Shown here piece by piece: positions 7,270-45,840 of a DNA stretch of 45,840 nucleotides; positions within the stretch are counted from its first letter, which is position 1, and each line of letters starts with the position of its first letter. The DNA comes from a virus. Position numbers and translations under genes: made by a program. A model generated the notes under the pieces. That model was not told where the DNA came from. It did no database searches and saw only the letters and a program-made list of their open reading frames with translations. The DNA lies in IMG/VR virus record IMGVR_UViG_2545824543_000001; one strand, written 5' to 3'.

Positions 7270-7887
7270 ATGTCAGATACAGCGCACGTCGACAGCGAGT
7301 GGTTTCGCACACGGTTCGCTCAGAAGGGAACGTCTTATAGGGCGTTCGCTCGCGAGCATGGCATGGACCCATCCGCCGTGTCGCGCATGCTGACAGGTCA
7401 AAGACGAATGCAGAGGGATGAAGCCGCCGCCATCGCTCAATTTATCGGCGCACCAGTCAGCGAAGTTTTGAAACATGCGGGCGTAACCATCGACGGCGAG
7501 TTCACGCCGATACTGCTCGTCGCAACGATCAATGAGCACGGCCAAATCGAGCGCCTACCGGAGCCGCGACCGTTGCCGCATTCAGTGATCGAGCGAGCGC
7601 AGTCTGCGATTGATGCGGTCCCGCGTGTTCTCGCTGCGCAGATTCGTGCGCTGACTGGACCGTTGACCGTCATGGATGATGCGCTTGTATTGTTCAGCCA
7701 CACCGATGACGTTGAGCCTACTTCGATAGGTGCGTTGTCTATCTGCCGGAACTTCGCGGGCGATCAAATCCTCGCCAAGATCGAGCGCGCCAGGAAGACC
7801 GGCGAGGCGCGCGTCGTCACGATTGACGGCAAGGTCAAGGAATTTGACCTGCAAACAGCGACGCCAATTCTGACGATCATTCCATAA
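7270..7887 (+). CDS. CI-like repressor (XRE-type HTH N-terminus, non-S24-looking C-terminal domain)
   Basis: 205 aa. HTH is SYRAFAREHGMDPSAVSRMLTGQRRM. Divergent from the Cro-like gene and followed by a strong hairpin terminator. Confidence 0.7.
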   Translation: MSDTAHVDSEWFRTRFAQKGTSYRAFAREHGMDPSAVSRMLTGQRRMQRDEAAAIAQFIGAPVSEVLKHAGVTIDGEFTPILLVATINEHGQIERLPEPRPLPHSVIERAQSAIDAVPRVLAAQIRALTGPLTVMDDALVLFSHTDDVEPTSIGALSICRNFAGDQILAKIERARKTGEARVVTIDGKVKEFDLQTATPILTIIP

Positions 7888-9056: not shown

Positions 9057-9250
9057 AGCTCTCCGTCCAGACGCGGCTTTATTGGGAGGCCGCACACTTC
9101 TTTCGCCGGTCCGGAAAATCGGACCTAACCATAGCAAAAAAATTTCTCGAAAAGGTCGCGGCCGACGCGCCCGCCCGTCTCAAAGACCGAGCAATCAACG
9201 TCCTCGTGGAGATCGACAATGAGCAATTCAACCGCGCTTGCAACCGCTGA
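9053..9250 (+). CDS. Hypothetical protein
   Basis: 65-aa ORF starting at a GTGA overlap with the upstream stop. Overlaps the recT start by 32 nt. Confidence 0.45.
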   Translation: MKLSVQTRLYWEAAHFFRRSGKSDLTIAKKFLEKVAADAPARLKDRAINVLVEIDNEQFNRACNR

Positions 9251-10148
9251 CCAGCGTCAAGCTACACTTCGCAATGCCCTCGTGAAAATGGCCCCGGAAT
9301 TTAGCAAGGCGTTGCCGGGCCATATTACGGCCGACCGCTTCGTGCGAACGGCCCAGACAGCAATCGCACTCACGCGCAACATCGACCGCGTGAGGAACCC
9401 ACAGTCGTTGCTTGCAGCCTGCACAAAGGCCGCAGCAGACGGGCTTATTCTGGACGGGCGCGAGGCCGCGCTTGTCATCGACTACAACGGCGAAGCTCAG
9501 TACCGCCCGATGATACGCGGCTTGCTCAAGCTCGCGTATCAGAGCGGCGAGCTTAAAGGGATCGTTGTCGAAGTTGTGCGGCAGGGCGATGTCTTCAGGC
9601 ACCGGCCGACGAACCTGCTCGAGCCGATCACGCACGAGATCGACCACGACGCCGAACGCGGCGAGCCGCGCGTCGTCTATGCGATGGCCGAATTGAAGGA
9701 AGGCGGCATCGTTCACGAGGTTATGTCAGTCGCAGCGATCAATCGCATTCGCGACCGCTCTGATGGTTGGAAAGCCTTTCAGGCCGGTAAGATCAAGTCG
9801 ACGCCTTGGGGTACGGATTGGGAAGAAATGGCGCGCAAGACCGTATTCCGCCGCCTCTCGAAATATCTGCCGTCGAGCAATGAGAAATTGCACCAAGCGG
9901 CCGAACGTCCCGACGACGCCGTGACTATCGATGGCGAAGCCGTCGAGACGACGCCGCCGACGACGACGAAGGCACCGGCAGGCCCGAAGACGCGCGGCGG
10001 CGCAGCGGCGGCACTTAGAGCCGTTCAGCCCGTCCAGCAGCCGCTTGAACTCGATCCCGAGCGCGAGCCCGCAGAGCAAACCGGCTTCGACCTTGAGACG
10101 GGCGAAATCCTCGAAACCAGAGCGGACTACCCGGGCGACGACATCTAA
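9219..10148 (+). CDS. recT: RecT-family single-strand annealing recombinase
   Basis: 309 aa. RFVRTAQTAI...AADGLILDGREAALV...YRPMIRGLLKLAYQSGELK is typical of RecT. Confidence 0.85.
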   Translation: MSNSTALATADQRQATLRNALVKMAPEFSKALPGHITADRFVRTAQTAIALTRNIDRVRNPQSLLAACTKAAADGLILDGREAALVIDYNGEAQYRPMIRGLLKLAYQSGELKGIVVEVVRQGDVFRHRPTNLLEPITHEIDHDAERGEPRVVYAMAELKEGGIVHEVMSVAAINRIRDRSDGWKAFQAGKIKSTPWGTDWEEMARKTVFRRLSKYLPSSNEKLHQAAERPDDAVTIDGEAVETTPPTTTKAPAGPKTRGGAAAALRAVQPVQQPLELDPEREPAEQTGFDLETGEILETRADYPGDDI

Positions 10149-18600: not shown

Positions 18601-21600
18601 TTTCGCAGTCAATGCGGGCTCGCGTTCCGCGACCTCGGAAACAGCTTTAAGTTCTGCTGCGATCCATTGGCCGCGCTTGTCGACGTGAACCGCGTCCACC
18701 GCTTCCGCTTCGAGCGAGCCGTCGTTCAGCACGTCGCCGTGACGATCACGCATAATGCGATCCGTCTCGGCCTCGATTGCCTCCGTGCGTTTTGGCGCGC
18801 GCTCCATCGCCTGAATCATTTCATCGCCGCTATCGAAGCCAAACCATCCAGCCGCTTCGTCGGGATCAATGCCGCCGTCGACCGTGTAGATCGTTTGCTT
18901 GCCGCGTGGCAAAGTTTTGAGAACGCCCGAGCCGTAACGAGCGACAAGGATTTCTTTCGACAGCCTCATGTCTGGCAGGTCTTGATCCTGGCCGTCGCCA
19001 AGCCAGCGCTTATTGCCCATCCATTCAATCGCGCGGAAATACGGGTAAGCGTTGACCTCCTTGGTAACTTGCGCCTTGACCTTCTCGCGCTCCTTTTTGA
19101 ACCATTCCTCTTTTTGCCGTTTAATCGGCTCCATAATTTCGCGTAGCAGGCGAGCTTTGGCGCTATCCTCGGCCTGCTGGCGTAGCTTCATCAGATTGGC
19201 GTACTCGGCCGCCGTAAGCCCAAGCTGCTCAGCCGTCGCGAAGACAGGCGTCGAGCCGCCTATGTTCCCTTGCGCCTTGGCGATTTCCTCATCCGTCGCA
19301 ATCATCCGATCGAATACGCCCCGGATCTGATCCGAAGGCTTGACGTTCAGTCCCGCCAACCGCTGATAAATCGACACGAGCCAAGCCCGGAACTTCTCGA
19401 AGGCAGAGCGCAATTCCTCATTCGGCGCGCGGCCCTCCATCAGATAGGCTTCAAACCCGCGCGCAAACTGCTCTTGGCCGCCGACGACAAGCGCGCGATC
19501 CTTTACCGCGTCGCCGGTCGTACCGTTGTCCAGCCATGCCGTCACGTCTTCTACGGTCACTGTAACGCCATCGGTCGACCGCGTTGCGTCTTTCGCCACA
19601 GCGTCGGCGTTCTCGCGCCACCACTCACGCACGGCCTTGATCTCCGCAGCCGCGTGCGGCTCACCGCGCGCCGCAAGATCCTCCAACACGGTCAAGAAGA
19701 AATGGCCGCTTTCATGGACGACGGTCGACAGGTTCGCCGTCTCGAACAGGCGAATGATCGACTCGCCACTGCTGACACCGGCAGAAGGGAATTGGATCGA
19801 GCCGCGAGCGCCCTGATTGTATGAGCGGCCCTCGAATTTCGGGTGCAGCGTGGCAGTCTCGCCCGGCGTCGGATAGTCGATCTCTCGCACGTCGAAGACT
19901 TCGGACACCGACGCACCGGCCTTGCCCTTGCTATAGCCGACAACGCTGTCATAGCCAGCCTCGCGTACTGCATGAGCAATCACGTTCTCTTGCAGGGCGT
20001 ATCGAAGCTGATTGCCCTGCTTACTGTTCGCGATGATCTCATAAGCCAGCGTTGGATCTGCGCCATGTTCTTCAAGGAAGTTCGAAACATTTTCCTCGAA
20101 CAGCCCAGGCTCGCGAAGCATATGCTTCGACGTGACGACGGCCATAACGGCGCGGTCAAGTTCCTTCATCGCGCCCTTGCCCTTGAGCGCATTCCATGCA
20201 GCCTCGGGAGCCTTGCCGCCCGTCGCGCCCTTCACAAACAGCGGGCGCTTTAGGATCGTTTCACCGCGCGTCTCTACCGGCCCGCCGTAAGCACCGCCAA
20301 CCGAACCCTTGCCGCGATAATACTTCGCATTCTTTGAGCCGACAGGGAGATAGAAGACGCCCGTTCGGACGGACGTTGCTCCGATCTGTTCCGGCTTCTG
20401 GTAGCGAACCAAATCGATCAGCAAGCCGTCATCGGTGATTGACGCGCCTGCCGTGTTTGCAACGGCCTCAGAGAATAGCGGATCAGATGGAAGCTCCACA
20501 GACATATCGATGCGGCGCGCCTGATCTGGCGTAACTTGCAGCGCTTTAAATGCCCCGCCGTGCTGGGTTGAGCGAACGACAATAACCTTGTTGTCGGGAA
20601 CGTCGGCCGTATTCCAAGGCGGCGGGATAGTGCCCTTCTCAGGCGGCTTGCCAAGTGCTTCTGCCGCATAGCGTTGGCGCATATCATCGGCGCGCTGCAT
20701 GCGATCACGCGTCTGAATGTTGCGCGCTTCGGCCTCGCCAGCGATGCGCCTATAATATTCGTACTTAGCCGCATAGATCAGATCCGCATGCGCGGCGCGG
20801 ATTTTTGGCTCCAATTGATCAATTCGAGCTTCGAGCTTAACGCGCTCTTCCGCGCTCGGAGAGCCGTCAAGCTTTTTCGCTATGGCTTCCCACTCAGCGA
20901 CGTATTGACTGATCTCGCGCTTTATTTCTTCGACCGTCACGCCTTCATACAGTTCGCCCATTTCGAGATTGCCGCCGTGCGCAAATCCTTCCTGATCTTG
21001 GATCACGTGCGCAATCTCATGCAGCAGAATAGAACGCGCGTGGACGAGGGTCTTACCCTGGACCTCAATGCTGTTCCCGTCCCATAGCCCCCCCGCTTCC
21101 GCGTTCGGGTTGATTTTGAATTTTACGGGAATGCCTTTGAAAATCGTATAGGCATCGAACAGCTTCGAATGATCGAGAAGCTCGCCAAGCGTGCCGTCGA
21201 ATCGCCAGCCGGACTTTGTTTTAGTCAGCGCGTTTTGTTTGATTGTAGCGTCAGCGTCGCTTATTTCGAACCGCCACTGACCGTCAGGCCCGACGAAGAA
21301 CCCGGTTTCGTCATAGATCTCATCTCGCGTCGCCCCAGCGGCGCGCATGAGAACGGCCTTGCTCAATGCCTCAAGTTCGACCGTCTTCGCGCTGATCCCG
21401 GCAAACTGATTGAACGACGACGCACCGGCCTTCTCCAAGGCTTTGCGGATCGTCGCATCATCGTCGTCTAGCGACACGCCGACTTCTGCAAGATGCTCTT
21501 CGATGCCGCTCAGATCCCTTGCGCGTTCAATCGCGGGGTCAATCGCATCATGCGCTGAATACTGAGCGCTTCCGGACAATTCCGCGTCGATAGCATCCCA

Positions 21601-23940
21601 CAGCGCCGCCGTAATATCCGGCGTCTGTCGACCTTCTTCGACCGCGCGCAGATATTCCTGTACTGCCGGATTGTCGGCCATGTAGCCGCGCTCTATCGCA
21701 GCGAGCGCTACGTCGTCGGCCCCGAACCGCTTTCCGTCGCCAGACCCGAGCATTGACGACTGACCGGCGACGAAGCCCTTGCGCGCAAGCCGCAACGACT
21801 TTTTGCCCTTGCCGCGATTAACGACCGTGGCATCGCGCGCCGCAAGTTCGCCACCCGCGTCATTGATGCCGCCGTAATCGGAAATGAACTCGAGCAACGT
21901 CTGCCGCTTGTCGCTGAGCGTCCTTGCCGCGCGCGCTTCGGCCAGCGTTCGCGTCAGCGCGTCAACATTGCGAAACTGCATTCCTTCCGGAATGGAACCT
22001 TTGATTTGCGGCAGCGGATACTGCTGCATAAATTCTTCTGTCGTCAGCCCCGAGCGCAGCGCCATCACGCGGTAAAACGCGGGATAAAGCATTGCTTCAG
22101 TCGTGGCGACATCGGTCGACCGCCCGGCCAAGCGAAGCCGCGACACCATCGTATCGTATATCTCTTGCTCGAACGACCGAAGTTCCTCGTTCCTCAAGCG
22201 GAGATCTTCAGCAAGCTGCCATGCTTCTTCGAGCGCATCGCTGACCTTTGCGTTGAACTCTGCCGCCTCCCCAAACGTCTTTTCGTTCGGATCGAACCGC
22301 ATGTTGTCGATCAGGAACGCGTCATGCTCTGAACCGGCAATTTGCGCCGCATACGTTGCAGTCGGGATTTGCAGATCTTGGCCGCCGTCAAGCGCCGCCT
22401 GTAGGTCTTCGCGCGTGACGCCTTCCAAACTGTCGACGAGATCGAACGGGTCAAGGTTCATCGACTGGAAGTATTCGGTGAACTTTTTCGCCGGAATGAA
22501 TACGTTCTCGACCGGCCCGTCTTTCGTCGCTTCAGCAACAAACTGGCGGAACTTCTCAGGCAAGCGATTGCGCAGCGCCGACGATTGCGCTTGTCCGGAA
22601 AGCTGCTCGAACAGCGCCTTGCGCGCCTCGGCTGATTTGGCCTTGGCCTGTGCATCGAGAAACTTTTCGCGGCCGACGCCGACGACTTCGATGGGAGCTG
22701 TTGCAAATTCTGCAATACCTTCCATCAGGATATCGCCTAGGCTCATCTGCTGACCGGAGAAGTATTGCCCGCCAGCTTCGCCAGAGGCACCCATTACCGC
22801 CTGCGTCAGCGATTGCAGGACCATGTTGCCCACAGGACTTTCCGCCAGCGTCTTGCCAGCTACGCCACCCGACAGGCCGTCCATCATGCCGACAATTACG
22901 CCTCGCACGTTGCCACGGTCGACGGCCGCTTTCATCAGTTCTGGGTTTGAGATCGCCGCAAGCGCGTCTTCAGGCTTCGAAATATCAAGGCCATGTTCCT
23001 TGAACAAATCGGCCGGCGCAGTTCCCATTTCCGTCGCAGCCGAAGTCGCGCCCAAAGTGACGGCACCGGCAATAGGGTTTCCCGTTCCAATCGTGACGGC
23101 CGTTGCCGCAGCGAGGGAGGGAAGACTTTCGGCCGCCGTCTCAGCGGCAAACGCTGCAAATGCTTTAGGGTCTTTGGCAATCGCCTGCATGTAGGAGCCG
23201 AAATCTGCCCACACGTCGCCGGACGGCTTGACTTCCGTCCAGATCTCGCGCCCACGCGCACCGGCAGGCGACATCGGGATCTCAGCAATGCGCTTATTGA
23301 TCAGCCCGACTTGCTGCTGATAATAGGCGGCGGTATTCTTCGCCGCGTCAGGCCCAGCGGCAAATTCGGAAAACCGCGACGTGGCGTAGCGAGAACCGGC
23401 CTTGAACAAGTCGATTGGATCTGGAACGCGTTTGTAAATCAGATTGCCGTTCTTATCGCGAACGTCAGTCTCACTCGCCAGGATGTCGCCAAACGACTGC
23501 TGCTGATCCTGATAGCGCTCCGTCGCGGCGTTCGCCATTAGCTGATTGTAAGCCATCGGCACGCGGTCGACGCCGCGCGATATGGCATTCTTCGCAGCTA
23601 CGAACGGCGTTTCCCACCACGACAGATTTGAAAGATCGTCTTTCGCAACGGCGGCATTCTCAGGGTTGCGCAGCCATTGGGTCAGACGCGGCGAACTCGA
23701 GAGGATCGTCGAGTTTTTCTGCCGTGCGATTTCCGCTTGGAAAACGCTGCTAAACTCTTGCACCATAGCCAGCGGCGGAACCGGCGAGCCGCTGATTTTT
23801 GCGAACTCGTTCGCGAGATTTATATGTCCCGCAACCTCGTCAGGCTTGCCGTCCGTCGTGGAGAGCACGACGTTCGCGGCCCCCACGTTGCTCTGCTGCT
23901 GCTTAGCTTTCCAGGTTTCGTAGTCTGCAAGCGTGTCCAT
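15661..23940 (-). CDS. Giant internal virion / ejection protein (gp16 position) with polyvalent-protein features and two HExxH motifs
   Basis: 2759 aa. HEIAH at aa 974-978 (nt 21007-21021), followed by AGEAEARN. HESGH at aa 1409-1413 (nt 19702-19716), followed by EQFARGFEAY. Hydrophobic/Gly-rich segments near aa 260-420 and at the C-terminus. Confidence 0.8.
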   Translation of the reverse strand: MDTLADYETWKAKQQQSNVGAANVVLSTTDGKPDEVAGHINLANEFAKISGSPVPPLAMVQEFSSVFQAEIARQKNSTILSSSPRLTQWLRNPENAAVAKDDLSNLSWWETPFVAAKNAISRGVDRVPMAYNQLMANAATERYQDQQQSFGDILASETDVRDKNGNLIYKRVPDPIDLFKAGSRYATSRFSEFAAGPDAAKNTAAYYQQQVGLINKRIAEIPMSPAGARGREIWTEVKPSGDVWADFGSYMQAIAKDPKAFAAFAAETAAESLPSLAAATAVTIGTGNPIAGAVTLGATSAATEMGTAPADLFKEHGLDISKPEDALAAISNPELMKAAVDRGNVRGVIVGMMDGLSGGVAGKTLAESPVGNMVLQSLTQAVMGASGEAGGQYFSGQQMSLGDILMEGIAEFATAPIEVVGVGREKFLDAQAKAKSAEARKALFEQLSGQAQSSALRNRLPEKFRQFVAEATKDGPVENVFIPAKKFTEYFQSMNLDPFDLVDSLEGVTREDLQAALDGGQDLQIPTATYAAQIAGSEHDAFLIDNMRFDPNEKTFGEAAEFNAKVSDALEEAWQLAEDLRLRNEELRSFEQEIYDTMVSRLRLAGRSTDVATTEAMLYPAFYRVMALRSGLTTEEFMQQYPLPQIKGSIPEGMQFRNVDALTRTLAEARAARTLSDKRQTLLEFISDYGGINDAGGELAARDATVVNRGKGKKSLRLARKGFVAGQSSMLGSGDGKRFGADDVALAAIERGYMADNPAVQEYLRAVEEGRQTPDITAALWDAIDAELSGSAQYSAHDAIDPAIERARDLSGIEEHLAEVGVSLDDDDATIRKALEKAGASSFNQFAGISAKTVELEALSKAVLMRAAGATRDEIYDETGFFVGPDGQWRFEISDADATIKQNALTKTKSGWRFDGTLGELLDHSKLFDAYTIFKGIPVKFKINPNAEAGGLWDGNSIEVQGKTLVHARSILLHEIAHVIQDQEGFAHGGNLEMGELYEGVTVEEIKREISQYVAEWEAIAKKLDGSPSAEERVKLEARIDQLEPKIRAAHADLIYAAKYEYYRRIAGEAEARNIQTRDRMQRADDMRQRYAAEALGKPPEKGTIPPPWNTADVPDNKVIVVRSTQHGGAFKALQVTPDQARRIDMSVELPSDPLFSEAVANTAGASITDDGLLIDLVRYQKPEQIGATSVRTGVFYLPVGSKNAKYYRGKGSVGGAYGGPVETRGETILKRPLFVKGATGGKAPEAAWNALKGKGAMKELDRAVMAVVTSKHMLREPGLFEENVSNFLEEHGADPTLAYEIIANSKQGNQLRYALQENVIAHAVREAGYDSVVGYSKGKAGASVSEVFDVREIDYPTPGETATLHPKFEGRSYNQGARGSIQFPSAGVSSGESIIRLFETANLSTVVHESGHFFLTVLEDLAARGEPHAAAEIKAVREWWRENADAVAKDATRSTDGVTVTVEDVTAWLDNGTTGDAVKDRALVVGGQEQFARGFEAYLMEGRAPNEELRSAFEKFRAWLVSIYQRLAGLNVKPSDQIRGVFDRMIATDEEIAKAQGNIGGSTPVFATAEQLGLTAAEYANLMKLRQQAEDSAKARLLREIMEPIKRQKEEWFKKEREKVKAQVTKEVNAYPYFRAIEWMGNKRWLGDGQDQDLPDMRLSKEILVARYGSGVLKTLPRGKQTIYTVDGGIDPDEAAGWFGFDSGDEMIQAMERAPKRTEAIEAETDRIMRDRHGDVLNDGSLEAEAVDAVHVDKRGQWIAAELKAVSEVAEREPALTAKEARASARLTIARMRVRDATASGRFLAAERAAAEEAERLAAQLARNSIWLKNANRRIEAKARAVAKGEASPDALAKAIEDRNAKLESRDQTVQRTERRFGADGGQFIATTPVETHTAGYNELVANLIDAKRRQLINHALYTESRKVAEEVEKAENYVKRLNSKSTRERIAGAGRRENATIDYLGAIDEILERYDFRKISGAAEQRRGTLNAFIEAMKAAGRENEISIPESVLSDAARKPYKTLPVEQLRGVIDSLKNLEHVATRWDKLIDAQNERALDEVVTEIAEAFEANVKKRPPGRVKTKAEAIRHGARQFLDLVLNATTLLREIDGFKDAGTAYRNIKAPIDAAMSRLIVRKEKAATALEGLYSVYSKAERREMAVRRHMPEIGFALSKWERIAVALNTGNEGNMQRLTDPKVRGSFTEAQVAAILATLDERDADFVQSVWDYVGSFWNDIAARERRTTGVEPKRVEGSPVTIGGKTLAGGYYPIKYDPRLSSLARDDQTQEIAQSLQAGRFGKAQTRNGHLKERAQSSGRDVELDMSVLHRHVNQVIYDLELSEPVANSWRILQDGRIRDAFTETGKQADFDALELWLKDVAEGELRSGDFVGRAARSLKSNFTAAKLAFNLVTVASQISGLSQTMVVLGKRDFVRGLQASLRPGAIADITAKSAFMSTRATTFNKDINDFYNDPKMGPVASRWGDIKSEWIGPLSFWLMTKVQWYTVDIPSWLAGYQQGLRRFGNDEAKAIAHADDVVKRAQASGLFSDRSAIERGSVTRTARQNDVVRLFTALGSYMFAKFNVAYERTGKASRTLQQEGVSARSAVEVMSWTVDMVFLFTLEAVIMAAIRGQLPGGDDGEDDKKDGWAKFLAKQTGLSVMGTIPFVRDGASALQGFDGGGAYGGIIGDAGKGAIGLFNVLTAPLSEDGLAGIKPKDIKGIINATGLATGLPATQVNRGVDALMRSNEGEDVSPLEYILGRRGK

Positions 23941-30944: not shown

Positions 30945-31427
30945 TTAAATGTCGTCGCCAGTCTCGCCGGTAGAGCCCGGCGCGATCCAATCGGGCTGAA
31001 CGCCGCCGATAGCTTCGGCCACGCCGTTGCCCGTCACCGTTACCGGCGCAGGAGCATCAGCGAACGGCCCGCGCTCGCTCTCGCTTGCCTCGACATAGGC
31101 CGCGATAATGCGGTCAGCTTCCGTCGCGTTGGCGACGTTCTCGCCAGTGATCGCTTTCGCAAGCGCTTTGCGATCTGCGGCTTTCCCATCCCGCCAATCG
31201 GCAGGAACGACAACAGGCCCGGCAGGTTTGGACTGATCGGCCGTCACTTCTGCCGGTTTCGATCCGCCCGTTTTGCCGTCGCCATCGTGGTCGCCCTTGC
31301 CGCCGAAAGAATATGGACGCGTCCACTTCGGCGGATTCTTCAGATCGTCCGGAACGTCGAAGATCGACCCCGGCTCTCTGATCTCGCCGCCGAAATAGCC
31401 ACGTACTTTTGCAACGACTTTAGCCAT
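30945..31427 (-). CDS. Hypothetical virion-module protein
   Basis: 160-aa ORF overlapping the cement-protein stop by 8 nt. Gly/Asp/Pro-rich centre. Confidence 0.6.
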   Translation of the reverse strand: MAKVVAKVRGYFGGEIREPGSIFDVPDDLKNPPKWTRPYSFGGKGDHDGDGKTGGSKPAEVTADQSKPAGPVVVPADWRDGKAADRKALAKAITGENVANATEADRIIAAYVEASESERGPFADAPAPVTVTGNGVAEAIGGVQPDWIAPGSTGETGDDI

Positions 31428-31857
31428 TGGACTGGTTCCCCATCGTTACGCCCGCCGTTACCTTGCCCGCCGTCATCGGACCCGTCGCGACTGTGTAGTA
31501 CAGACGCGCATAGCGCTCGTCCGTGCCGCGCGTGATGTATTCCGGAACGACGATGAAGCCCTGCACAAGTTCGGCCTTGCCGATTGCACGGCTCTGCCAA
31601 ACAGTCTTTGCAGACGAGAAACTTTCGTTATCGTCGACTTCGAGAGAAAACTGCAAAGTCGCAGAGCCAGAAGCGGTGAACGCTTCGATCACCTGGATAA
31701 GCAACGGGATCGAGCACCCCTTGCCGATGTCGCGAGCGAGGTTCACGGCAGCGCCGTAGACGCGCCCCGTAGCGCCCAGGTCGATAACATTCGTAGATGC
31801 AGCCGACGCCGTAATTGCCTGCGCATCAGACAAAAGAGACTGATTGTCGAAGATCAT
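31420..31857 (-). CDS. Bbp16-like capsid cement / decoration protein
   Basis: 145 aa. N-terminus is FDNQSLLSDAQAITASAASTNVIDLG and C-terminus is RYARLYYTVATGPMTAGKVTAG, resembling the BPP-1 cement protein family. Lies directly downstream of the capsid gene. Confidence 0.65.
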   Translation of the reverse strand: MIFDNQSLLSDAQAITASAASTNVIDLGATGRVYGAAVNLARDIGKGCSIPLLIQVIEAFTASGSATLQFSLEVDDNESFSSAKTVWQSRAIGKAELVQGFIVVPEYITRGTDERYARLYYTVATGPMTAGKVTAGVTMGNQSNG

Positions 31858-31930: not shown

Positions 31931-32944
31931 TTATGCGTATGCCGGAACAAGCGCCTCGGTATTCAGAAGCGCGTCCGTCTCGCGGATCGGAATACCGCGA
32001 TACGTCTTGACTTCCTTGCCTTCGACAACGGCCTGCGACAGACCCGTATAGTTCGCGTTTGCAGCAAGAAGCGCGCGGTCGCTCGACTGAGCGTCAAGGA
32101 TTTCGAGAACGTCGCGGTTCATGTAGATCGCGATCCGGCTCGACTGAGCGTCGCGACGGCGCGACTGCAAGCGGTAGTACCCCTTGCGGAGCAGCGCCCA
32201 CAGATCGACAGTGCCCGCCAGCATTTCGGAAACGTCGATGTTCGCGATACGGGCGTTATAGCGCCAGTCTTTCACGAACATGCCGATATGCCAGTTAAAC
32301 AGCGTCTCCTTGACGTAGTAGGGATTGCCCGCGCTATCGGTAACGCGCTGCTCGCCCTTGTCCTCAATCGAGATGCCCGCCTTCATGCCCTTGGGATAGA
32401 GCAACGAGGTTGCATGATCGCCCCAGGTAACGAACCAGATCGACGTGTTGTCGCTTCCGGAGCCGCCGCCATGGATAACCTGCTCGCCCGCGCCAGGACC
32501 GCCGCGCACGGAGTAACGAGCCGATAGACCCTTGAACTTGTCAGGCGTCGTCGCCGTGTCGTGATAGAACAGACCCGTTGCCATTTCCTGATTCATGGCT
32601 TCGAGATACGGAGCGCTATCGACGAGACGCGCCTTTGCAGGATCGGGCGCAAGCTTGAGCAAGCGCGTATCGATTTGCGAGCCAGCTTCGAGGAAGCCGG
32701 TCGTATCGTCGACCTGCTGCATCGTCGCCTTTGACTGCGGAACGCCTTTGTAAAGACGGCCCCAGCCGACAGTCGGCAAACCTGTGCGGATCATGTGGCG
32801 ATGCTGCGCCTGCATGTTGCACTCGGTCGCGATTGCGTCGTCTAGGATAGAATTTTGCTGATTGAGAATTTCAGCAACCGTTCCCTCAGCGGACCCCTTA
32901 AAGGCGTCGATGAGGTTAGGGAAAGATTTGCCAATAGTAGCCAT
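31931..32944 (-). CDS. Major capsid protein (BPP-1 Bbp17-like)
   Basis: 337 aa. Positioned between the scaffold and cement genes and followed by hairpins. Size and context fit the BPP-1-type capsid. Confidence 0.8.
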   Translation of the reverse strand: MATIGKSFPNLIDAFKGSAEGTVAEILNQQNSILDDAIATECNMQAQHRHMIRTGLPTVGWGRLYKGVPQSKATMQQVDDTTGFLEAGSQIDTRLLKLAPDPAKARLVDSAPYLEAMNQEMATGLFYHDTATTPDKFKGLSARYSVRGGPGAGEQVIHGGGSGSDNTSIWFVTWGDHATSLLYPKGMKAGISIEDKGEQRVTDSAGNPYYVKETLFNWHIGMFVKDWRYNARIANIDVSEMLAGTVDLWALLRKGYYRLQSRRRDAQSSRIAIYMNRDVLEILDAQSSDRALLAANANYTGLSQAVVEGKEVKTYRGIPIRETDALLNTEALVPAYA

Positions 32945-32946
32945 GT

Positions 32947-33747
32947 TTAGCCTTTCGGAGCGTCACTAGGAAACAGGACGTGTGCAGGATCGGCAGGTTT
33001 GCCGGAACCGCCCGCGCCACCACTCGGCGGGGAATCCTCGCGGATCATCGCCCCGGCCTTCGACATGAAACGGATAAGCTCAGGATGGTTGCCGCCTCCA
33101 CTGGCGTTCAAATATTCCTTCAGTGCTGGCGTCCCGAGCTTGTTGACGGCGCGCGTAGCTGACGCGACAGTCGCGTCCCACTTGTCGCCGCCGATTTCCT
33201 TGTCAGCCTTCGCGCTATCGGCCCAGCCTTGGATCGTTTCGCCCCACTGCTTCGCCTCTTGCTCGATCTCTGCGCGCCGCGTTTCGATGTAATCGTTCGT
33301 TAGCTCTTGAGCTTCGCGGTGCGTGTAGCCTTTGGCTTTGAGACGTGGACTGAGCTTGTCGAGCAATGCCTTGTCGACCTCTACGCCGTCCGGCATCGTC
33401 AGGTTATATTTGCCGTCTTCAGGCACCTGATCGAGCGGATCGGCGCTCTTTTTGTCCTTGTCTTCTGCCGGTTTCGTCTTGTCGTGCTCAGCCTTCGCCG
33501 CAGCGCTCTCCGCATCGCTCTTGCTCGGATCTGCGACGTATTCCTTCCAATCGGTCGGCGCTTTATCACCGGCAGGCGTAGCTTCCGCAGGCTTCGCAGG
33601 ATCAACGGGCGCAGCCGGATCGGCAGGCTTCTCGTTGGGGAACAGGATCGTGCCTGGATCGCTCGGAGGCGTATTGCCGCCAGCGCCTTCATCATCAGGC
33701 GCGAAGAAAAACGCGGGAAAGAATACGCTTCTAAGCAATGTCTGCAT
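32947..33747 (-). CDS. Scaffolding protein
   Basis: The ATG at 33747 has GGAG upstream, whereas the ORF-track start at 33774 is TTG. Pro/Ala/Asp/Lys-rich and helical. Sits directly upstream of the capsid gene. Confidence 0.65.
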   Translation of the reverse strand: MQTLLRSVFFPAFFFAPDDEGAGGNTPPSDPGTILFPNEKPADPAAPVDPAKPAEATPAGDKAPTDWKEYVADPSKSDAESAAAKAEHDKTKPAEDKDKKSADPLDQVPEDGKYNLTMPDGVEVDKALLDKLSPRLKAKGYTHREAQELTNDYIETRRAEIEQEAKQWGETIQGWADSAKADKEIGGDKWDATVASATRAVNKLGTPALKEYLNASGGGNHPELIRFMSKAGAMIREDSPPSGGAGGSGKPADPAHVLFPSDAPKG

Positions 33748-34084
33748 CGTCTTCAGGCTCCAATTTCTCAGCAAGCGACTTCGCCGCTGCCTTGTCCGCT
33801 TCCCGAATTTCCTTCATCGCCAGCAGCAATTCGGGATAGAACTGCGGGTCGATCTCATCGAGCTTTGCGATCAGCTTTCGGCCGGCCGATTGCAGCCCGA
33901 GCGCGTAATTCGTCGAATTGTTTTCGCCTGTGTAAGCGTCCGTGTAGATCGCGCACTGTTCGAGCATCCAGAACAGAACGCGCTTGCCACCGGCCAACGC
34001 GAAGACATCGCGAAACGCCTTCGACATCTCCGCGCGTTCGATGATTTGCGCGGGCGAAAGTTGTTCTGTTAAATCCTCGCGCAT
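33731..34084 (-). CDS. Hypothetical head-module protein
   Basis: 117-aa ORF between portal and scaffold. Start abuts the portal stop. Confidence 0.6.
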   Translation of the reverse strand: MREDLTEQLSPAQIIERAEMSKAFRDVFALAGGKRVLFWMLEQCAIYTDAYTGENNSTNYALGLQSAGRKLIAKLDEIDPQFYPELLLAMKEIREADKAAAKSLAEKLEPEDDADIA

Positions 34085-35775
34085 CAGCCAATCCCCAGCT
34101 TTTGCAGCAGCGCGCCGCCGCCAGCGTTATTCTGAGCATCAGCGAGCACCGACGCGGCTTCCGCGCCCTGCTTTGCAGCGGGTGCCATTGTGGCCGCCAT
34201 CGCCGCGCTTTCTGCCGCCTGCTGCTTCTGCGCGCGCGCTTGGCGGGTCTTCGCAACTTCATCGTCAGGCACAACGATAGACGGCGGCACGCCGATATAA
34301 TCGAAGTACACGTCTACAGCTTCGTCCGCGTCGATCTTGTCGAGAACGTCAGGCTTCACAGCAGACAACTGACCGACGAACGCAACACCGCGCTCGATGC
34401 TTCCAGTCGCGACGGCCTTCTGAGCTTGCGCCAGCATCGACGTATATTCGATGCCGAGGTTTTTCTTTTGCAGATCAGGAGGCGGCGGCGGCAGCATTTC
34501 GCGCCTGTTCATGATCGCATAGGAGCGCTCGATAATCGGCTCGAGTTGTCCGTTGTAAATGTTTTCGAGCACCGGCCCGAGCGCCAGCAGCTTTTCTTCC
34601 TTGCGCTCCGCGATCTCGAATTGATTGCGCGGCTGAATGCCTTCCATGTTCGCCAGCATCAGGAACAGATCAGCGTAAAACGTGCGATCTACGCGCCTCT
34701 GCGTCTCGTTGATGTCCTCGCGAAGCTCGCCCAGGCGCAAATCAACCTGCATTGCAGGGCGGTAGCCGACGTTGGCGCTTTGGGCGTCGACGTAGGTAAT
34801 CGAGCCCGGCAGAAGCGAAGCCGGGTTGTTTCGCATGCTCGTCGGTCCCGTCATCGGCGGCCGGACTTGCTTGTCTATGCCTTCGAGCTTCCGCGACTGC
34901 TCTTTTTGCAGCATCTTCACGTCACCGATGGCATCTTGCCCCGGCGACGTCGCGTAGTGATCATCTCCCGATAGTTCCCACGGCGGCGCGATAATCGGGT
35001 TTTCTTCGAAGCCGCTTTCTTCAAGAAGCTTGTCGCCGTCGCCGCCTTCCTCCCAATAGTTCGAGAGATAAGGCATATCCCACTTAGCCGCGCTGTCCGG
35101 ATTGCGGTTTAGACGCGGCTCGATTGCCTGCCAGATAACGAAAGTCTCATCGTATCGGCCGGAATCATACTTCTCGCGGATGCGATTGCTGACGTTCTTC
35201 AGCCCGAAGCGCCCGACGATCCGCTGAACCGACCAGCGGAAATTGCGATAGAGCGTCGTCGCACGGCCCTTTTCATCGCGCGCGATCCAGAACGTCCCAT
35301 GCAAAAGCTGGATCATGCGAATTACTTTTTCGTCGTCTTCGACGAGGATGCCGCACGACTGACCGAACAGGCCTAGATCGCCGTATCCTGTATGGAACGA
35401 GGTATAGAGGTTCGATGCCGAGAACACCTTGCGCATGCGTTCCTCGGTCAGAGACAGGTATTGCTTGACCGGCGCAAAGTCTCGCAGTTCCGGATCTTCG
35501 GCCGCGAGCTTGAACCAAGGCCGGGCTGGCGATGTCAGGCCCGAATGCATGCCTGATTTCAGCGTGCGATAGGCGAGCGTTCCCGTCCCGTCGATAATCT
35601 TCTTGCGCGAAGCGGCGCGTTCAGCACGCAATTGCGCGCGATACCGCGTCGGATCGACATTGTTCGCAAGCTCTTGCCAGTCGCTTTCCCACGGCTGGCG
35701 GATCTGCTTCAGTTCTTCGCAACGCCTGCGGTGATAGGCGATTTGCGTCTCGTTGCTCGGAGCGTTCGCGCTCAT
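34084..35775 (-). CDS. Portal (head-to-tail connector) protein, podovirus type
   Basis: 563 aa. Position downstream of terL. Motifs include NLYTSFHTGYGDLGLFGQSCGILVED. Confidence 0.8.
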   Translation of the reverse strand: MSANAPSNETQIAYHRRRCEELKQIRQPWESDWQELANNVDPTRYRAQLRAERAASRKKIIDGTGTLAYRTLKSGMHSGLTSPARPWFKLAAEDPELRDFAPVKQYLSLTEERMRKVFSASNLYTSFHTGYGDLGLFGQSCGILVEDDEKVIRMIQLLHGTFWIARDEKGRATTLYRNFRWSVQRIVGRFGLKNVSNRIREKYDSGRYDETFVIWQAIEPRLNRNPDSAAKWDMPYLSNYWEEGGDGDKLLEESGFEENPIIAPPWELSGDDHYATSPGQDAIGDVKMLQKEQSRKLEGIDKQVRPPMTGPTSMRNNPASLLPGSITYVDAQSANVGYRPAMQVDLRLGELREDINETQRRVDRTFYADLFLMLANMEGIQPRNQFEIAERKEEKLLALGPVLENIYNGQLEPIIERSYAIMNRREMLPPPPPDLQKKNLGIEYTSMLAQAQKAVATGSIERGVAFVGQLSAVKPDVLDKIDADEAVDVYFDYIGVPPSIVVPDDEVAKTRQARAQKQQAAESAAMAATMAPAAKQGAEAASVLADAQNNAGGGALLQKLGIG

Positions 35776-41196: not shown

Positions 41197-41265
41197 CGTT
41201 GCGAATATCGCAACGGGCTATTGACGCGGTGTGGATCGATGTGTGAATGTTGCGGCCATCGCAAC
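41197..41265 (+). promoter_or_regulatory. Rightward early promoter flanked by two perfect dyad operators
   Basis: CGTTGCGAATATCGCAACG (41197-41215) is a perfect 8-3-8 palindrome. TTGACG lies at 41221-41226. GTTGCGGCCATCGCAAC (41249-41265) overlaps the -10/+1 region. Confidence 0.6.
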
Positions 41266-41279
41266 GGAGAGCACATCAA

Positions 41280-43167: not shown

Positions 43168-43409
43168 CCGAACTCGAAATGAAGCTGGCGTCGGCCCTGC
43201 TGTACGCGAAGGGGAAACTTAAGCTGTACCGAGGAGCGCACATCGGCGAATATATCGGCGGCGTTGAATACGCAGAGCTTATGCGGATCATCGACGACGC
43301 ACTCGACGCGACCAAGAAGAAGCCAGCGCCGGAAGCAGAAGGGATAATGACCCAACCCCGCCGCTATGACCCGCTCAGCCGCGAATACGACGACGAGATA
43401 CCCGATTGA
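43164..43409 (+). CDS. Hypothetical protein
   Basis: The ATG at 43164 overlaps the Lar-like stop as ATGA. The ORF-track start at 43140 is less likely. Confidence 0.5.
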   Translation: MTELEMKLASALLYAKGKLKLYRGAHIGEYIGGVEYAELMRIIDDALDATKKKPAPEAEGIMTQPRRYDPLSREYDDEIPD

Positions 43410-43416
43410 CGACCGA

Positions 43417-43447
43417 GCCCGGCGAACCATTGCCGGGCTTTTTATTT
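43417..43447 (+). terminator. Rho-independent terminator
   Basis: GCCCGGC-GAACCATT-GCCGGGC followed by TTTTTATTT. Confidence 0.8.
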
Positions 43448-43454
43448 GCCCCCA

Positions 43455-43500
43455 TTGACGACTATTGCGCTCTGATGTTATGTGTTGTGGAAATCGCAAC
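43455..43500 (+). promoter_or_regulatory. Promoter plus operator of the right-end cassette
   Basis: TTGACG (43455-43460), 18 nt, TATGTG (43479-43484), then the dyad GTTGTGGAAATCGCAAC (43484-43500). Its layout closely parallels 8124-8168. Confidence 0.55.
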
Positions 43501-43513
43501 ACAGAGCCGCAAC

Positions 43514-43873
43514 ATGAAAAAGAAATTCCCAACCATCGAGGTCAAATCCGCCACCGGCGGCAAGGTCTTCATTACTTGGCGCGATGTGAAAGCCAACCGC
43601 CGCTATCACATCTGGTTCAGCCGCGACCAACTCGATCACGTTTTTTATTCGAACTGGATCGATCCGCAGGGCAAGAGCCGAGGCCGAACGCACAAGCGCC
43701 TAAAGGCGAGCGCGAAGAAATGGGCACCATTCATGGCCCACATTCGCGCCGTGCTCGCGGCCCGGCAGATTTCCGAAGCCCGAGCGGCTTTCAATCTCAA
43801 ACATGATTCAGCACGCGCCGCCGCGTTCAAATTGCTGCCGCGCATCCCGACCGCTGAACTCAGGCCCTACTGA
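43514..43873 (+). CDS. Hypothetical basic protein
   Basis: The ATG at 43514 lies downstream of the terminator and promoter. The ORF-track start at 43406 would span the terminator. Confidence 0.55.
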   Translation: MKKKFPTIEVKSATGGKVFITWRDVKANRRYHIWFSRDQLDHVFYSNWIDPQGKSRGRTHKRLKASAKKWAPFMAHIRAVLAARQISEARAAFNLKHDSARAAAFKLLPRIPTAELRPY

Positions 43874-43892
43874 CACCAGGAGGCAATGCACA

Positions 43893-44129
43893 ATGTACGG
43901 CACCACTTGCACCATCGAGCGCGACGGCGAGCAGATCGAGGTCGAAGTCGAATATTCTCTGACGCCATACTACCCGGCCCAGACCTACGGCCCCGCAGAG
44001 AATTGCTACCCGGCAGAGGGCGGCGAGATCGACGAGCTTACCGCCTACCTCGACGGGGAGAAGTTCGAACTGACCCCCGTCGAAATGCAAGCCGTCGAAA
44101 AGCGCATCTATGAAATCGACCTTTGGTGA
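43893..44129 (+). CDS. Hypothetical acidic protein
   Basis: The ATG at 43893 is preceded by AGGAGG. 78 aa. Confidence 0.6.
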   Translation: MYGTTCTIERDGEQIEVEVEYSLTPYYPAQTYGPAENCYPAEGGEIDELTAYLDGEKFELTPVEMQAVEKRIYEIDLW

Positions 44130-44133
44130 TGCC

Positions 44134-44400
44134 ATGAACACAGCATTCCTTTTGATGGCTCAATATGAAGGCAAGGCGGTCATTCCGCTTGACGACGTTT
44201 GCCGCGACTACTTCAGCCACCTGACGCCCGCGAAGCTTTCATATAAGGCGACCGCTGGCGAGATCGATTTGCCGATTGTGCGGATCGAGACGAGCCAGAA
44301 GGCCGCGCGCGGCGTTCACCTTCAGGACTTGGCGGCATGGATTGACGCCCGCCGAGCAGCGGCGCAGAAGGAAAACGATCAGTTGCAGGGGAGACGGTAA
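44134..44400 (+). CDS. PrtN-family (pyocin activator-like / excisionase-fold) DNA-binding protein
   Basis: MNTAFLLMAQYEGKAVIPLDDVCRDYFSHLTPAKL...GEIDLPIVRIETSQKAARGVHLQDLAAWID matches my recollection of the PrtN family. Ends in QLQGRR. An alternative start lies at 44110. Confidence 0.65.
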   Translation: MNTAFLLMAQYEGKAVIPLDDVCRDYFSHLTPAKLSYKATAGEIDLPIVRIETSQKAARGVHLQDLAAWIDARRAAAQKENDQLQGRR

Positions 44401-44401
44401 A

Positions 44402-44617
44402 GTGAAGGTTGAAATTCACGGCAACGTGCGCGGCACGCCGGAAGTACGCAAGATATGGGAGGGTGAACTGTCTGCTTTGCCCCGACCAGACGACTACATA
44501 GTTCTAGATGAGGACAAAGCCGCCCTTTCAGTGCGCAATGTCATGATCATCGCGCCAACGAACAAAGCAATAATCAACGTGTGGGCACCCGAAAACGAGT
44601 ACCCTGCGATAGACTAA
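44402..44617 (+). CDS. Hypothetical small protein
   Basis: GTG start in the conserved context TAAAGTGAAGG. 71 aa. The TAA stop is followed in frame by CCQLQGRR-stop. Confidence 0.5.
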   Translation: MKVEIHGNVRGTPEVRKIWEGELSALPRPDDYIVLDEDKAALSVRNVMIIAPTNKAIINVWAPENEYPAID

Positions 44618-44648
44618 TGTTGTCAGCTTCAAGGGAGGCGATGAAGCA

Positions 44649-44873
44649 ATGAGCGAAGAAAAATTCTTTCGATCCCTCGTCTTACAGTCGCTTTGGATCT
44701 TGATCGTTTGCGCGTTCGGCGGCCGACCGAGAGGCAGGGCGGAAGAATTGCGCGGCGAACTTATCCGCTACTTTGATGAGCACGGAAACCAGACCGAGAG
44801 CGCACACGAGTATCGGCGCACGACTACGTTCCCGGCTCTGCCAGCAGAAGACCAGCTTCAAGGGAGGCGCTAA
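44649..44873 (+). CDS. Hypothetical small protein with one hydrophobic segment
   Basis: 74 aa. SLVLQSLWILIVCAFGG. Ends in QLQGRR. Confidence 0.55.
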   Translation: MSEEKFFRSLVLQSLWILIVCAFGGRPRGRAEELRGELIRYFDEHGNQTESAHEYRRTTTFPALPAEDQLQGRR

Positions 44874-45044
44874 ATGCCAGTTATCTACTATTGCGATAGG
44901 TGCGGCACAGAGCACAAGATCACATCTAGGCCGAAGGTAATACCGACCAGGATAACGTGTCGGTGCGGAGTTACATTGACCATAGACGACCCCGAATTGC
45001 GAGAGTTGCCAGAGGCAGAAGAACAGCTTCAAGGGAGGCGATAA
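44874..45044 (+). CDS. Small four-Cys zinc-ribbon protein (56 aa, not in the ORF track)
   Basis: Hand translation: MPVIYYCDRCGTEHKITSRPKVIPTRITCRCGVTLTIDDPELRELPEAEEQLQGRR. The ATG directly follows the upstream TAA. Confidence 0.5.
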   Translation: MPVIYYCDRCGTEHKITSRPKVIPTRITCRCGVTLTIDDPELRELPEAEEQLQGRR

Positions 45045-45045
45045 A

Positions 45046-45354
45046 GTGAAGGAATCGCAAACCTATCCATCCTTAATCGACGCATCCGGGAGCGCGGCGG
45101 AAAGTATTGTCGCTGAAATCCTGAATAAGCAGAACCCGATTTTGGATGACGCTATTTTAGACATGCAAGCGCCGCATCGCTACCTGATCCGCATGGACTT
45201 GCCAGGAGTTGATTGGGGGCAACTCTACAGAGGCGTGCAAATTTCTTATGAGGCAAGGCAGCGCTTCAATGGTCGCAACTGGCGACGGATAAAGCGAGAA
45301 GTGCGAAAGGCCGTAAAAGCAGCGAAGCGCGAACGGCTTCAAGGGAGAAGATGA
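45046..45354 (+). CDS. Truncated paralogue of the major capsid protein N-terminus fused to a basic tail
   Basis: aa 7-67 align to capsid aa 8-71 with 38 of 61 identities by hand (LIDA, VAEILN, QN-ILDDAI, MQA-HR, IR, LP-V-WG-LY-GV). Ends in RLQGRR. GTG start in the TAAAGTGAAGG context. Confidence 0.65.
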   Translation: MKESQTYPSLIDASGSAAESIVAEILNKQNPILDDAILDMQAPHRYLIRMDLPGVDWGQLYRGVQISYEARQRFNGRNWRRIKREVRKAVKAAKRERLQGRR

Positions 45355-45668
45355 TGGACCCAGCCGACCTAAACGACCCCGCGACGGCAGAGGCTTTTGT
45401 GCGCGAGAGCATCGCAGACCTTACCGAGACGATTGCAAAATTTGAAGCAGCCGCCGAACAGAAGATTCAGGGATACCGCAAACGCTTCCCTGCAAATTCA
45501 TCGTTGCTGCTGGATCTCTATCATTCAGTGCGCGAGGAGTTGCGCGAAACGACGGCAGATATGAGGATGCGGCGCAATCTGCTTCTTGGAATTATCGAGC
45601 GCGTCGAGTCGACGAGACGCCACCACGAGCCGATCAGATTAGGGGAACCGATCAGCACCCCCGAGTGA
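45351..45668 (+). CDS. Hypothetical helical protein
   Basis: 105-aa ORF starting at an ATGA overlap. Last gene before the terminator and att-like region. Confidence 0.55.
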   Translation: MMDPADLNDPATAEAFVRESIADLTETIAKFEAAAEQKIQGYRKRFPANSSLLLDLYHSVREELRETTADMRMRRNLLLGIIERVESTRRHHEPIRLGEPISTPE

Positions 45669-45694
45669 CCACATAAGTATTACATGACGAATGA

Positions 45695-45730
45695 AGCCCG
45701 GCTTAACCCATTGCCGGGCTTTTGTTTTTT
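45695..45730 (+). terminator. Rho-independent terminator closing the right-end cassette
   Basis: AGCCCGGC-TTAACCCATT-GCCGGGCT followed by TTTGTTTTTT. Near-duplicate of the terminator at 43417-43447. Confidence 0.85.
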
Positions 45731-45745
45731 CAGAGCGCCGTCCAA

Positions 45746-45840
45746 TCCATCATGGGTGCGATACTGAATCGGTGATGCGCTGAAATCGCTGAATTATTTG
45801 ACATTCCCGATGAAATCCGTTGCGCATGTTGCTGTTAACC
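45746..45840. repeat. Right copy of the exact 95-nt terminal direct repeat
   Basis: Identical to 1-95. Its extent beyond the window edges is unknowable. Confidence 0.95.

Follow-up and report, generated by a model that had tools for sequence, protein, structure and literature searches.

The stretch of DNA analyzed here (the window) is the 45,840-nucleotide viral record IMGVR_UViG_2545824543_000001. The element in question is ORF102, a 102-amino-acid open reading frame (ORF) in a cassette of small genes that lies between a PrtN/excisionase-like gene and the phage integrase gene. ORF102 is composed of two parts: a segment homologous to the N-terminus of the major capsid protein (MCP) that the same phage encodes elsewhere (the resident MCP), and a basic tail that belongs to a family of unannotated small proteins. 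The arrangement is best explained, with a fair degree of probability, by a recombination event in which a gene of the small-protein family captured the 5′ fragment of an MCP gene, with any activity of the resulting chimera residing in the tail.

Capsid-derived and family-derived parts of ORF102

A BLASTP comparison of ORF102 (aa 5–75) with the resident MCP (aa 6–79) yields 39 identities in 74 positions with one 3-residue gap (E 5e-23). ORF102 alone also matches PF20911 with 34 bits against a cutoff of 27, covering only positions 6–58 of the 313 in the model, and scores 29 bits with the NCBIfam GP7 equivalog model (NF045672), below its threshold of 75. The homology is confined to MCP aa 6–77. 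A search in all frames for signs of pseudogene decay found no MCP homology past residue 73, frameshifted matches included. A complete GP7-type MCP consists of an N-element with spine helix and E-loop plus beta- and alpha-elements over ~310–345 aa; ORF102 does not contain this complete HK97-like (Johnson) fold, nor does it lie between scaffold and cement protein genes as MCP genes do, being located in the PrtN–integrase cassette ~12 kb from the resident MCP gene. The NCBI protein record for ORF102 (P0001) carries the name ‘phage major capsid protein’. This annotation is wrong, an over-annotation driven by the partial GP7 match.

At the codon level, 37–38 positions are identical over the 62–63 aligned between the fragment and the resident MCP gene, with a DNA identity of 63–65% and a protein identity of 53–60%. 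Because synonymous sites are saturated (proportion of synonymous differences, pS, ~0.8), the fragment did not arise by recent copying of the resident gene. A first-pass annotation of this DNA, made from the letters and a list of ORFs, had reported a 102-aa ORF at 45046–45354 and had described it as a free-standing, in-frame, diverged MCP N-terminus in an accessory cassette far from the late genes. Both statements are confirmed, with a GTG at 45046 and a TGA that ends at 45354, and its hand count of 38 identities in 61 positions agrees with the 37–38 found here. Its assertion that DNA identity is much lower than protein identity is incorrect, as the two values above show, while the conclusion drawn from it, that the duplication is not recent, stands on the synonymous saturation.

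To define the captured segment, element ranges of the BPP-1 MCP were mapped through an alignment with PDB 3j4u, in which BPP-1 numbering runs ~+5 relative to the resident MCP. The N-terminal loop of the BPP-1 MCP is made up of residues 5–30; it runs in the radial direction and augments a beta-sheet of the cement protein. Residues 31–60 follow, the E-loop occupies roughly residues 61–80 and the N-element including the spine helix spans residues 1–168 (PMC3863775). The fragment is not an autonomous domain. In an AlphaFold2 model of ORF102, residues 1–66 have predicted local distance difference test (pLDDT) values below 50, and the MCP-derived part is accordingly predicted to be disordered; the tail is the one part that the model renders confidently, with helices at residues 68–74 and 79–101 and 10-residue block means of 63–85 over residues 71–100.

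The N-terminal codons of 83 related MCP genes were gathered, and conservation was assessed over 54 unique MCP N-termini. Residues conserved among these are not retained throughout the fragment: of the 24 columns with a conservation of 95% or more, it departs from the common residue in 6 (K>G, C>L, N>D, H>Y, T>M and G>D). Thirteen of its residues are never seen at their column in the 54 N-termini, against a mean of 0.9 and a maximum of 4 in a leave-one-out control among the MCP N-termini themselves. The 3-residue deletion occurs in none of the 13 MCP N-termini that were examined as aligned sequences. The N-loop motifs YPSLIDA and AE..VAEILN.QNPILDDAI are still recognizable.

The tail has a separate ancestry. 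An exhaustive HMMER search of 1.84 billion representatives identified P0008, a 64-aa protein whose N-terminus is unrelated to ORF102 and whose residues 29–63 are 63% identical to ORF102 residues 67–101. Profile searches extended this match to a family of at least 119 members (P0008 and P0012–P0129, including P0080) that are 40–143 aa long, with a median of 69 aa among the 52 with the strict motif, and that are all unannotated. Family proteins comprise a hydrophobic strand, a helix and the near-invariant sequence F.GR(N/D)(W/R)RRIKREV(N/R)KA, given below in its short form GR(N/D)(W/R)RRIKREV.KA. The family hidden Markov model (HMM) aligns to ORF102 only at aa 68–98 (E 8e-16), starting at model position 38 of 89. 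ORF102 keeps all 14 conserved family positions, including the core motif, and agrees with the family in size and genomic slot. Neither the hydrophobic strand nor the opening half of helix A ((G/A)P..(Y/A)A(M/I)..A...F) is present in ORF102, the upstream part being MCP sequence, and it is the only member that carries a Pfam (GP7) domain. The tail and P0008 share 71% nucleotide identity, with a pS of 0.54, a proportion of nonsynonymous differences (pN) of 0.20, an uncorrected pN/pS of ~0.38 and a corrected dN/dS of 0.25. AlphaFold2 models P0008 as a helix (residues 24–35), a turn and a second helix (residues 41–59) with a pLDDT of 82. The Lys/Arg-rich tail noted in the first-pass annotation is therefore present, and it is homologous to a small-protein family rather than arbitrary sequence.

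The family loci (L001, L045, L131, L133–L135 and L137–L139) are situated at operon ends beside the integrase gene or just upstream of the small terminase gene. No members were found in GenBank phages or by a degenerate-pattern scan of IMG/VR, one was found in JGI metagenomes, and the motif was not found in the searchable literature. Ribbon-helix-helix proteins (Arc, Mnt, CopG and NikR) were considered as relatives of the tail family and found no support, with an hhalign probability of 0.09% and no Foldseek match in the PDB.

The relationship between the two parts is made explicit by the same slot in related phages. L137 is a Logan contig (SRR17222322_733) of 45,790 nt. At 73–83% nucleotide identity it matches the window colinearly through an exonuclease gene, a 78-aa gene and the PrtN gene (82.6% for the latter), and it does so again from 45662 through the terminator and the integrase, primase and VRR-NUC genes. 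The interval between PrtN and the terminator measures 0.44 kb in L137, where it holds P0080 and a 70-aa gene, versus 1.27 kb in the window, where it holds in order genes of 71, 74 and 56 aa, ORF102 and a gene of 105 aa. P0080 is a 65-aa family member that follows PrtN and ends in QLQGRR; in L001, PrtN is followed by P0008. In a three-way DNA alignment, the sequences agree at the 5′ junction motif and then over a stretch that opens with TATGAGGCAAGG (ORF102 codon 68) and extends as far as the 3′ junction; between these shared stretches lie 201 nt in the window versus 87–90 nt in the relatives. Because intact family members of 64–65 aa occupy this slot in L137 and L001, ORF102 is a family gene whose first 29 codons have been replaced by 67, of which codons 5–67 are MCP-derived. 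The first seven nucleotides of ORF102 (GTGAAGG) recur at the start of the 71-aa gene within a 40-nt repeat, which is consistent with insertion of the three extra genes by recombination at the junction motif.

In GTDB genomes and IMG/VR, 43 PrtN-anchored loci were compared, and neither the MCP fragment nor any other gene of the cassette was found in them. By its MCP, the nearest phage is L049/L129 (93% identity); its integration module is of another kind, and the cassette genes are absent from it. The chimera has no orthologs in an index of 5.8 billion proteins, where ORF102 is a singleton, in the exhaustive search of 1.84 billion representatives, in GenBank phages (tblastn) or in the IMG/VR and JGI metagenome scans. 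The survey of related prophages for the same fragment gene that the first-pass annotation had proposed thus came out negative for L137, L001, L049/L129 and the 43 PrtN-anchored loci.

Several database proteins that appeared to be analogs were rejected. P0002 and P0003, which look like MCP N-termini, are frameshifted MCP genes at the normal locus, and the matches of P0004 and P0007 are artefacts of summing over tandem repeats. In two loci (L046, 10001–11045; L047, 870–1486), the MCP gene at its normal position is split by a frameshift into an N-terminal ORF of 116–151 aa and a remainder. These split genes are sequencing errors or decaying prophages, and they explain the short ‘MCP N-terminus’ proteins in databases.

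The cassette, its junction motif and the phage genome

The coordinates of ORF102, its parts and the surrounding features are collected in Table 1.

Table 1. Features of the window discussed in the text
Feature	Position	Strand	Remarks
ORF102, chimeric gene	45046–45354	+	GTG start; TGA stop overlaps the next gene's ATG; 102 aa
MCP-derived segment, codons 5–67	45058–45246	+	N-terminal loop, next segment and about the first half of the E-loop
Tail, codons 68–102	45247–45354	+	Short helix, GRN turn, long basic helix; GR(N/D)(W/R)RRIKREV family core
Resident MCP	31931–32944	minus	Pfam PF20911 GP7, E 4e-119
Resident MCP codons 6–71	32732–32929	minus	Homologous to the ORF102 fragment
Bbp16-type cement protein	31420–31857		Homolog of Bbp16
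PrtN/excisionase-like gene	44134–44400	+	PF11112, E 3.5e-31; conserved left anchor of the variable cassette
Junction motif copy 1	44380–44402	+	PrtN end / start of 71-aa gene
Junction motif copy 2	44624–44646	+	Intergenic, upstream of 74-aa gene
Junction motif copy 3	44853–44875	+	End of 74-aa gene / start of 56-aa gene
Junction motif copy 4	45024–45046	+	Shine-Dalgarno of ORF102; encodes QLQGRR* end of 56-aa gene
Junction motif copy 5	45334–45356	+	RLQGRR* end of ORF102; Shine-Dalgarno of 105-aa gene
Three small genes (71, 74 and 56 aa) between PrtN and ORF102	44402–45044	+	Absent from L137, L001 and L129
105-aa gene	45351–45668	+	ATGATG overlap with ORF102, translationally coupled; no homologs in related loci compared
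Terminator-like hairpin and T-run closing the cassette	45693–45730	+	90% similar to hairpin 43427–43447 (family D10)
Integrase	187–1281		Cassette runs directly into this gene
CI-like helix-turn-helix protein	7270–7884		
PD-(D/E)XK (DUF3799) protein	8193–9053		
RecT	9219–10145		

The genes of the cassette are joined by a 23-nt junction motif, CAGCTTCAAGGGAGGCGATAAAG, which occurs there in five copies (repeat family D1). In a check based on an 11-nt core with one mismatch allowed, four of the five copies were matched together with one unrelated site, and 0 of 100 shuffles reached five core matches. The motif contains a Shine-Dalgarno sequence, AAGGGAGG, positioned 5–9 nt before each downstream start and 8–9 nt before the ORF102 GTG. 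Upstream genes that read through the motif acquire a ...(Q/R)LQGRR* C-terminus, and the shared LQGRR ends are for this reason a by-product of the translation-initiation junction and not a protein module. The ‘shared tail’ listed as intact in the first-pass annotation does exist in this sense, its source being the conserved ribosome-binding junction. Copies 1 and 4 show an extended similarity of 40 nt (family D2), and ORF102 and the 71-aa gene share a GTGAAGG start. The motif also follows PrtN in L001 and L137, its copies lying at 736–758 in L001 and at ~3981–4003 and 4176–4198 in L137. On both sides of ORF102, stop and start codons abut or overlap.

The remaining cassette genes, of 71, 74, 56 and 105 aa, are ORFans: comparison with the related loci gave no homologs, and none of the four matched a family significantly. 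A CxxC...CxC zinc-ribbon-like pattern is present in the 56-aa product, whose Lar/zinc-ribbon matches are only weak (E 0.04–0.06). PADLOC returned no match for ORF102, its neighbors or members of the tail family. Ahead of the cassette, a terminator-like hairpin at 43415–43440 is followed by TTGACG sequences. An operator-like palindrome, GTTGCGnnnnTCGCAAC, occurs in three copies: those at 41197–41214 and 41249–41266 lie in the divergent region between a VapE-like gene and the rightward early genes, and that at 43484–43500 lies just past the hairpin, ahead of the cassette. The palindromes are candidate repressor sites. The operator-controlled early-type promoter named in the first-pass annotation is plausible.

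The first and last 95 nt of the window are identical (1–95 and 45746–45840) and close it into a circle of 45,745 bp. The window is the complete genome of a temperate BPP-1/epsilon15-like podophage from Hyphomicrobium sp. 99. In addition to RecT and the PD-(D/E)XK protein, it encodes SSB, a helicase, a primase zinc-ribbon protein, a VRR-NUC protein and a dUTPase, and candidates for the small and large terminase subunits are present. The head module consists of portal (34084–35775), scaffold (32947–33774), GP7-type MCP and Bbp16-type cement protein genes, and solved structures related to the resident MCP are 8CJZ, 3J4U (BPP-1) and 3J40 (epsilon15). The tail/ejection part of the late region includes a single 2,759-aa ORF at 15661–23940 on the minus strand.

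Origin of the fragment and competing explanations

Among the 83 MCPs compared, the closest to the fragment is that of L049 (63.5% identity), the resident MCP reaching 60%, and no closer donor was found. Because pairwise dN/dS is saturated at synonymous sites, divergence was evaluated with a branch-specific codon model (GY94 with F3x4 frequencies, maximum likelihood) on a tree of 10 MCPs. In this tree the resident MCP and L049 form a clade, and the fragment is placed on its stem, with neighboring placements within 1–3 log-likelihood (lnL) units. The fragment branch measures 1.71 substitutions per codon, versus ~0.6 on the path that leads from the same node to the resident gene; values of 1.4–1.8 are found for other independent MCP lineages. 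The dN/dS ratio omega is 0.116 on the fragment branch versus 0.059 in the background. For this branch omega = 1 is rejected (2ΔlnL 11.1, p = 0.0009), while an omega equal to the background is not (p = 0.38). Most of the divergence of the fragment is synonymous and MCP-like, and the simplest reading is that the fragment passed most of the branch inside a functional MCP of another related phage. If the branch is split arithmetically into an MCP phase and a neutral phase, ~12% neutral divergence reproduces the estimate, and the chance of acquiring no stop codon over that divergence is ~0.3–0.5. Conserved positions are changed at 0 of 14 in the tail versus 6 of 24 in the MCP part (Fisher one-sided p = 0.049, a borderline value obtained with conservation thresholds from two different families), and these counts suggest that constraint acts on the tail rather than on the capsid piece. 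Base composition at third codon positions (GC3) was uninformative as a clue to foreign origin, at 0.57 in the fragment, 0.62 in the resident MCP N-terminus and 0.56–0.64 in neighboring genes.

Phage BPP-1 has a diversity-generating retroelement (DGR). Capture mediated by a reverse transcriptase (RT) or DGR was considered and rejected here, with no RT among 30 window proteins scanned against Pfam, a scan that covered part of the ORFs.

In the explanation that we favor, the chimera would be a product of recombination within the hypervariable cassette that stretches from the PrtN/xis-like gene to the terminator/integrase end. The MCP piece was probably captured from a related but different phage and not from the resident gene; alternatively, the whole cassette may have been assembled in such a phage and then moved here. 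Both joins are in frame, and the Shine-Dalgarno-containing motif ahead of ORF102 also precedes four neighboring genes. Shuffling of the cassette likely proceeds via the junction motifs and the RecT/PD-(D/E)XK pair of the phage itself, which could mediate exchange at short homologies like the 23-nt motif. After capture, the MCP piece would have drifted free of capsid constraints. The ORF102 protein is probably made: its Shine-Dalgarno sequence is strong and shared with the neighboring genes, and its flanking stop and start codons abut or overlap. Its 63 capsid-derived residues would act as a largely unstructured passenger N-terminal extension, and the conserved basic helix GRNWRRIKREVRKA would carry whatever activity there is, most likely binding of nucleic acid or a host factor.

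Several results weigh against this explanation. Since ORF102 is a singleton, expression of and selection on the free-standing gene are not demonstrable by comparison, and purifying selection acting on the fragment itself over a long time would account for the low omega equally well. The comparison of conserved positions is borderline, as stated above. The loss of the family strand and half of helix A, corresponding to HMM positions before 38, means that ORF102 may be non-functional as a family member too. The family itself has no match in Pfam, PHROG, NCBIfam or PADLOC, nor by Foldseek in the PDB at E ≤ 0.001, and a sigma-70 consensus scan of 43300–45840 found no promoter.

Some of these points lead to the alternative that ORF102 is a dead relic, an in-frame scar of which neither half functions and which stays open through recency or because it delivers ribosomes to the 105-aa gene and avoids polarity. 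This is rather unlikely. It accommodates the absence of ORF102 from all relatives, the truncated family domain, the changes at positions invariant in real MCPs and the stop/start overlap with the 105-aa gene, and the ~12% neutral divergence with its appreciable chance of escaping a stop codon would suffice for it. It accounts poorly for a tail with 14 of 14 conserved positions intact beside an MCP part that has lost 6 of 24, for two in-frame joins with a sole indel that is a multiple of three, and for a strong and conserved Shine-Dalgarno sequence; moreover, only 0.6% of composition-matched shuffles of ORF102 are stop-free. A trivial origin of the gene, by mis-joining of reads from two MCP-bearing phages or as a chance ORF, is extremely improbable. 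ORF102 does lie near the end of a contig that has a terminal overlap, but that 95-nt overlap closes the circle, and the cassette runs on into the integrase gene in the order seen in L137. Neither join breaks the reading frame, and the homologies are highly significant. Over 1287 nt (window 44302–45588) that include all of ORF102, the sequence is reproduced exactly in an independent Logan assembly (SRR1796720), which bears out the first-pass view that no assembly artefact is involved.

The first-pass annotation had proposed a dedicated mimic of the capsid N-arm that serves as an assembly poison, an immune decoy or a chaperone. In its fullest form, the MCP loop would dock on the cement protein or MCP and poison, delay or regulate assembly, or would distract capsid-sensing defence, with the basic helix as an added module, early expression from the prophage-end cassette and the phage itself or competing BPP-1-like phages as targets. 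Such a mimic, if real, would represent a new class of phage-encoded assembly or immunity modulator, and parts of the evidence suit it: the N-loop motifs are retained, the frame is kept through the 9-nt deletion, neutrality is rejected on the fragment branch at an omega of 0.116, the BPP-1 N-loop contacts the cement protein by beta-augmentation (PMC3863775) and a Bbp16 homolog is encoded here. Immune receptors that sense MCPs also exist, namely Avs7 and Dsr1 (PMC13581612). The low omega is equally explained by time spent in the full-length MCP of another phage, for which branches of 1.4–1.8 are normal. As a likeness the fragment is poor: its identity to any of the 83 MCPs is only ~60%, it has lost C, N, H, T and G residues that 96% or more of the 54 N-termini share, and it carries a deletion besides. 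It breaks off near the middle of the E-loop, includes neither the spine helix nor the cores of the A and P domains, and is disordered in the AlphaFold2 prediction. An early-type cassette gene would further have to act on late-protein targets, and a second example was found nowhere, P0002 and P0003 being frameshifted MCPs at the normal locus. A dedicated mimic is accordingly very doubtful: the conserved part of ORF102 is the non-capsid tail, the gene in the same slot of relatives has no MCP sequence, the fragment is absent from the relatives searched, invariant MCP residues are lost and AlphaFold2 predicts no fold for the capsid-derived part.

Relation to known systems

Compared with the MCPs Bbp17 of BPP-1 and gp7 of epsilon15 (PF20911), ORF102 residues 5–67 are homologous to the N-loop, the segment after it and a portion of the E-loop. 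ORF102 differs from them in having ~63 of ~335 residues, no spine helix or A/P cores, altered conserved residues and a gene outside the structural module. With the GR(N/D)(W/R)RRIKREV.KA family (P0080, P0008 and P0012), it shares the motif, the predicted helix-turn-basic-helix, the slot and the QLQGRR end; it alone has a foreign (MCP) N-terminus, and it lacks the strand and half of helix A.

The junction motif resembles the Start-Associated Sequences (SAS) of Cluster K mycobacteriophages (PMC3203893) in being a short, asymmetric, one-orientation repeat with a Shine-Dalgarno core, located a few bases upstream of the starts of several unrelated non-structural genes. The sequences differ (CAGCTTCAAGGGAGGCG against GGGATAGGAGCCC), and the likeness is one of analogy only. 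The motif here also has only five copies in one cassette, usually overlaps the end of the upstream gene (...LQGRR), and no extended inverted repeats are seen at it. A second parallel is provided by PeSLs, the mobile regulatory cassettes that T4-type phages carry in their hyperplastic regions (PMC2839356, PMC4122927), where likewise short regulatory repeats flank small ORFans and recombination explains insertions, deletions and replacements between close relatives. PeSLs are promoter-plus-terminator units, whereas the motif described here is a translation-initiation junction within an operon, at which recombination is inferred.

ORF102 provides a single clear case of how accessory cassettes make new ORFs, with a fragment of a structural gene grafted in frame onto a small conserved gene. 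It also illustrates that capsid Pfam matches outside the structural module can be recombination debris and need not mean new biology. The by-products of the analysis are the RRIKRE family, the junction motif and the corrected ‘major capsid protein’ annotation; the small-protein family (at least 119 members), now brought to light, merits a name and a functional test. Literature searches, which took in capsid-size redirectors and decoys, found no description of a capsid-fragment system or of a fusion between a capsid protein and a small basic protein. The statement in the first-pass annotation that no system of this kind is known for BPP-1-like capsids agrees with their outcome.

The closest general precedent is the mosaicism of tailed phages, in which chimeric genes arise by illegitimate or short-homology recombination in accessory regions. 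ORF102 similarly joins parts of two unrelated genes and is found in a hypervariable, non-essential region by the integration module, absent from close relatives. It differs in that the donor is the 5′ end of a major capsid gene and that the piece is in frame on both sides. Taken together, ORF102 looks like a one-off fusion in a shuffling-prone cassette, an instance of known phage mosaicism and not a capsid-mimic system.

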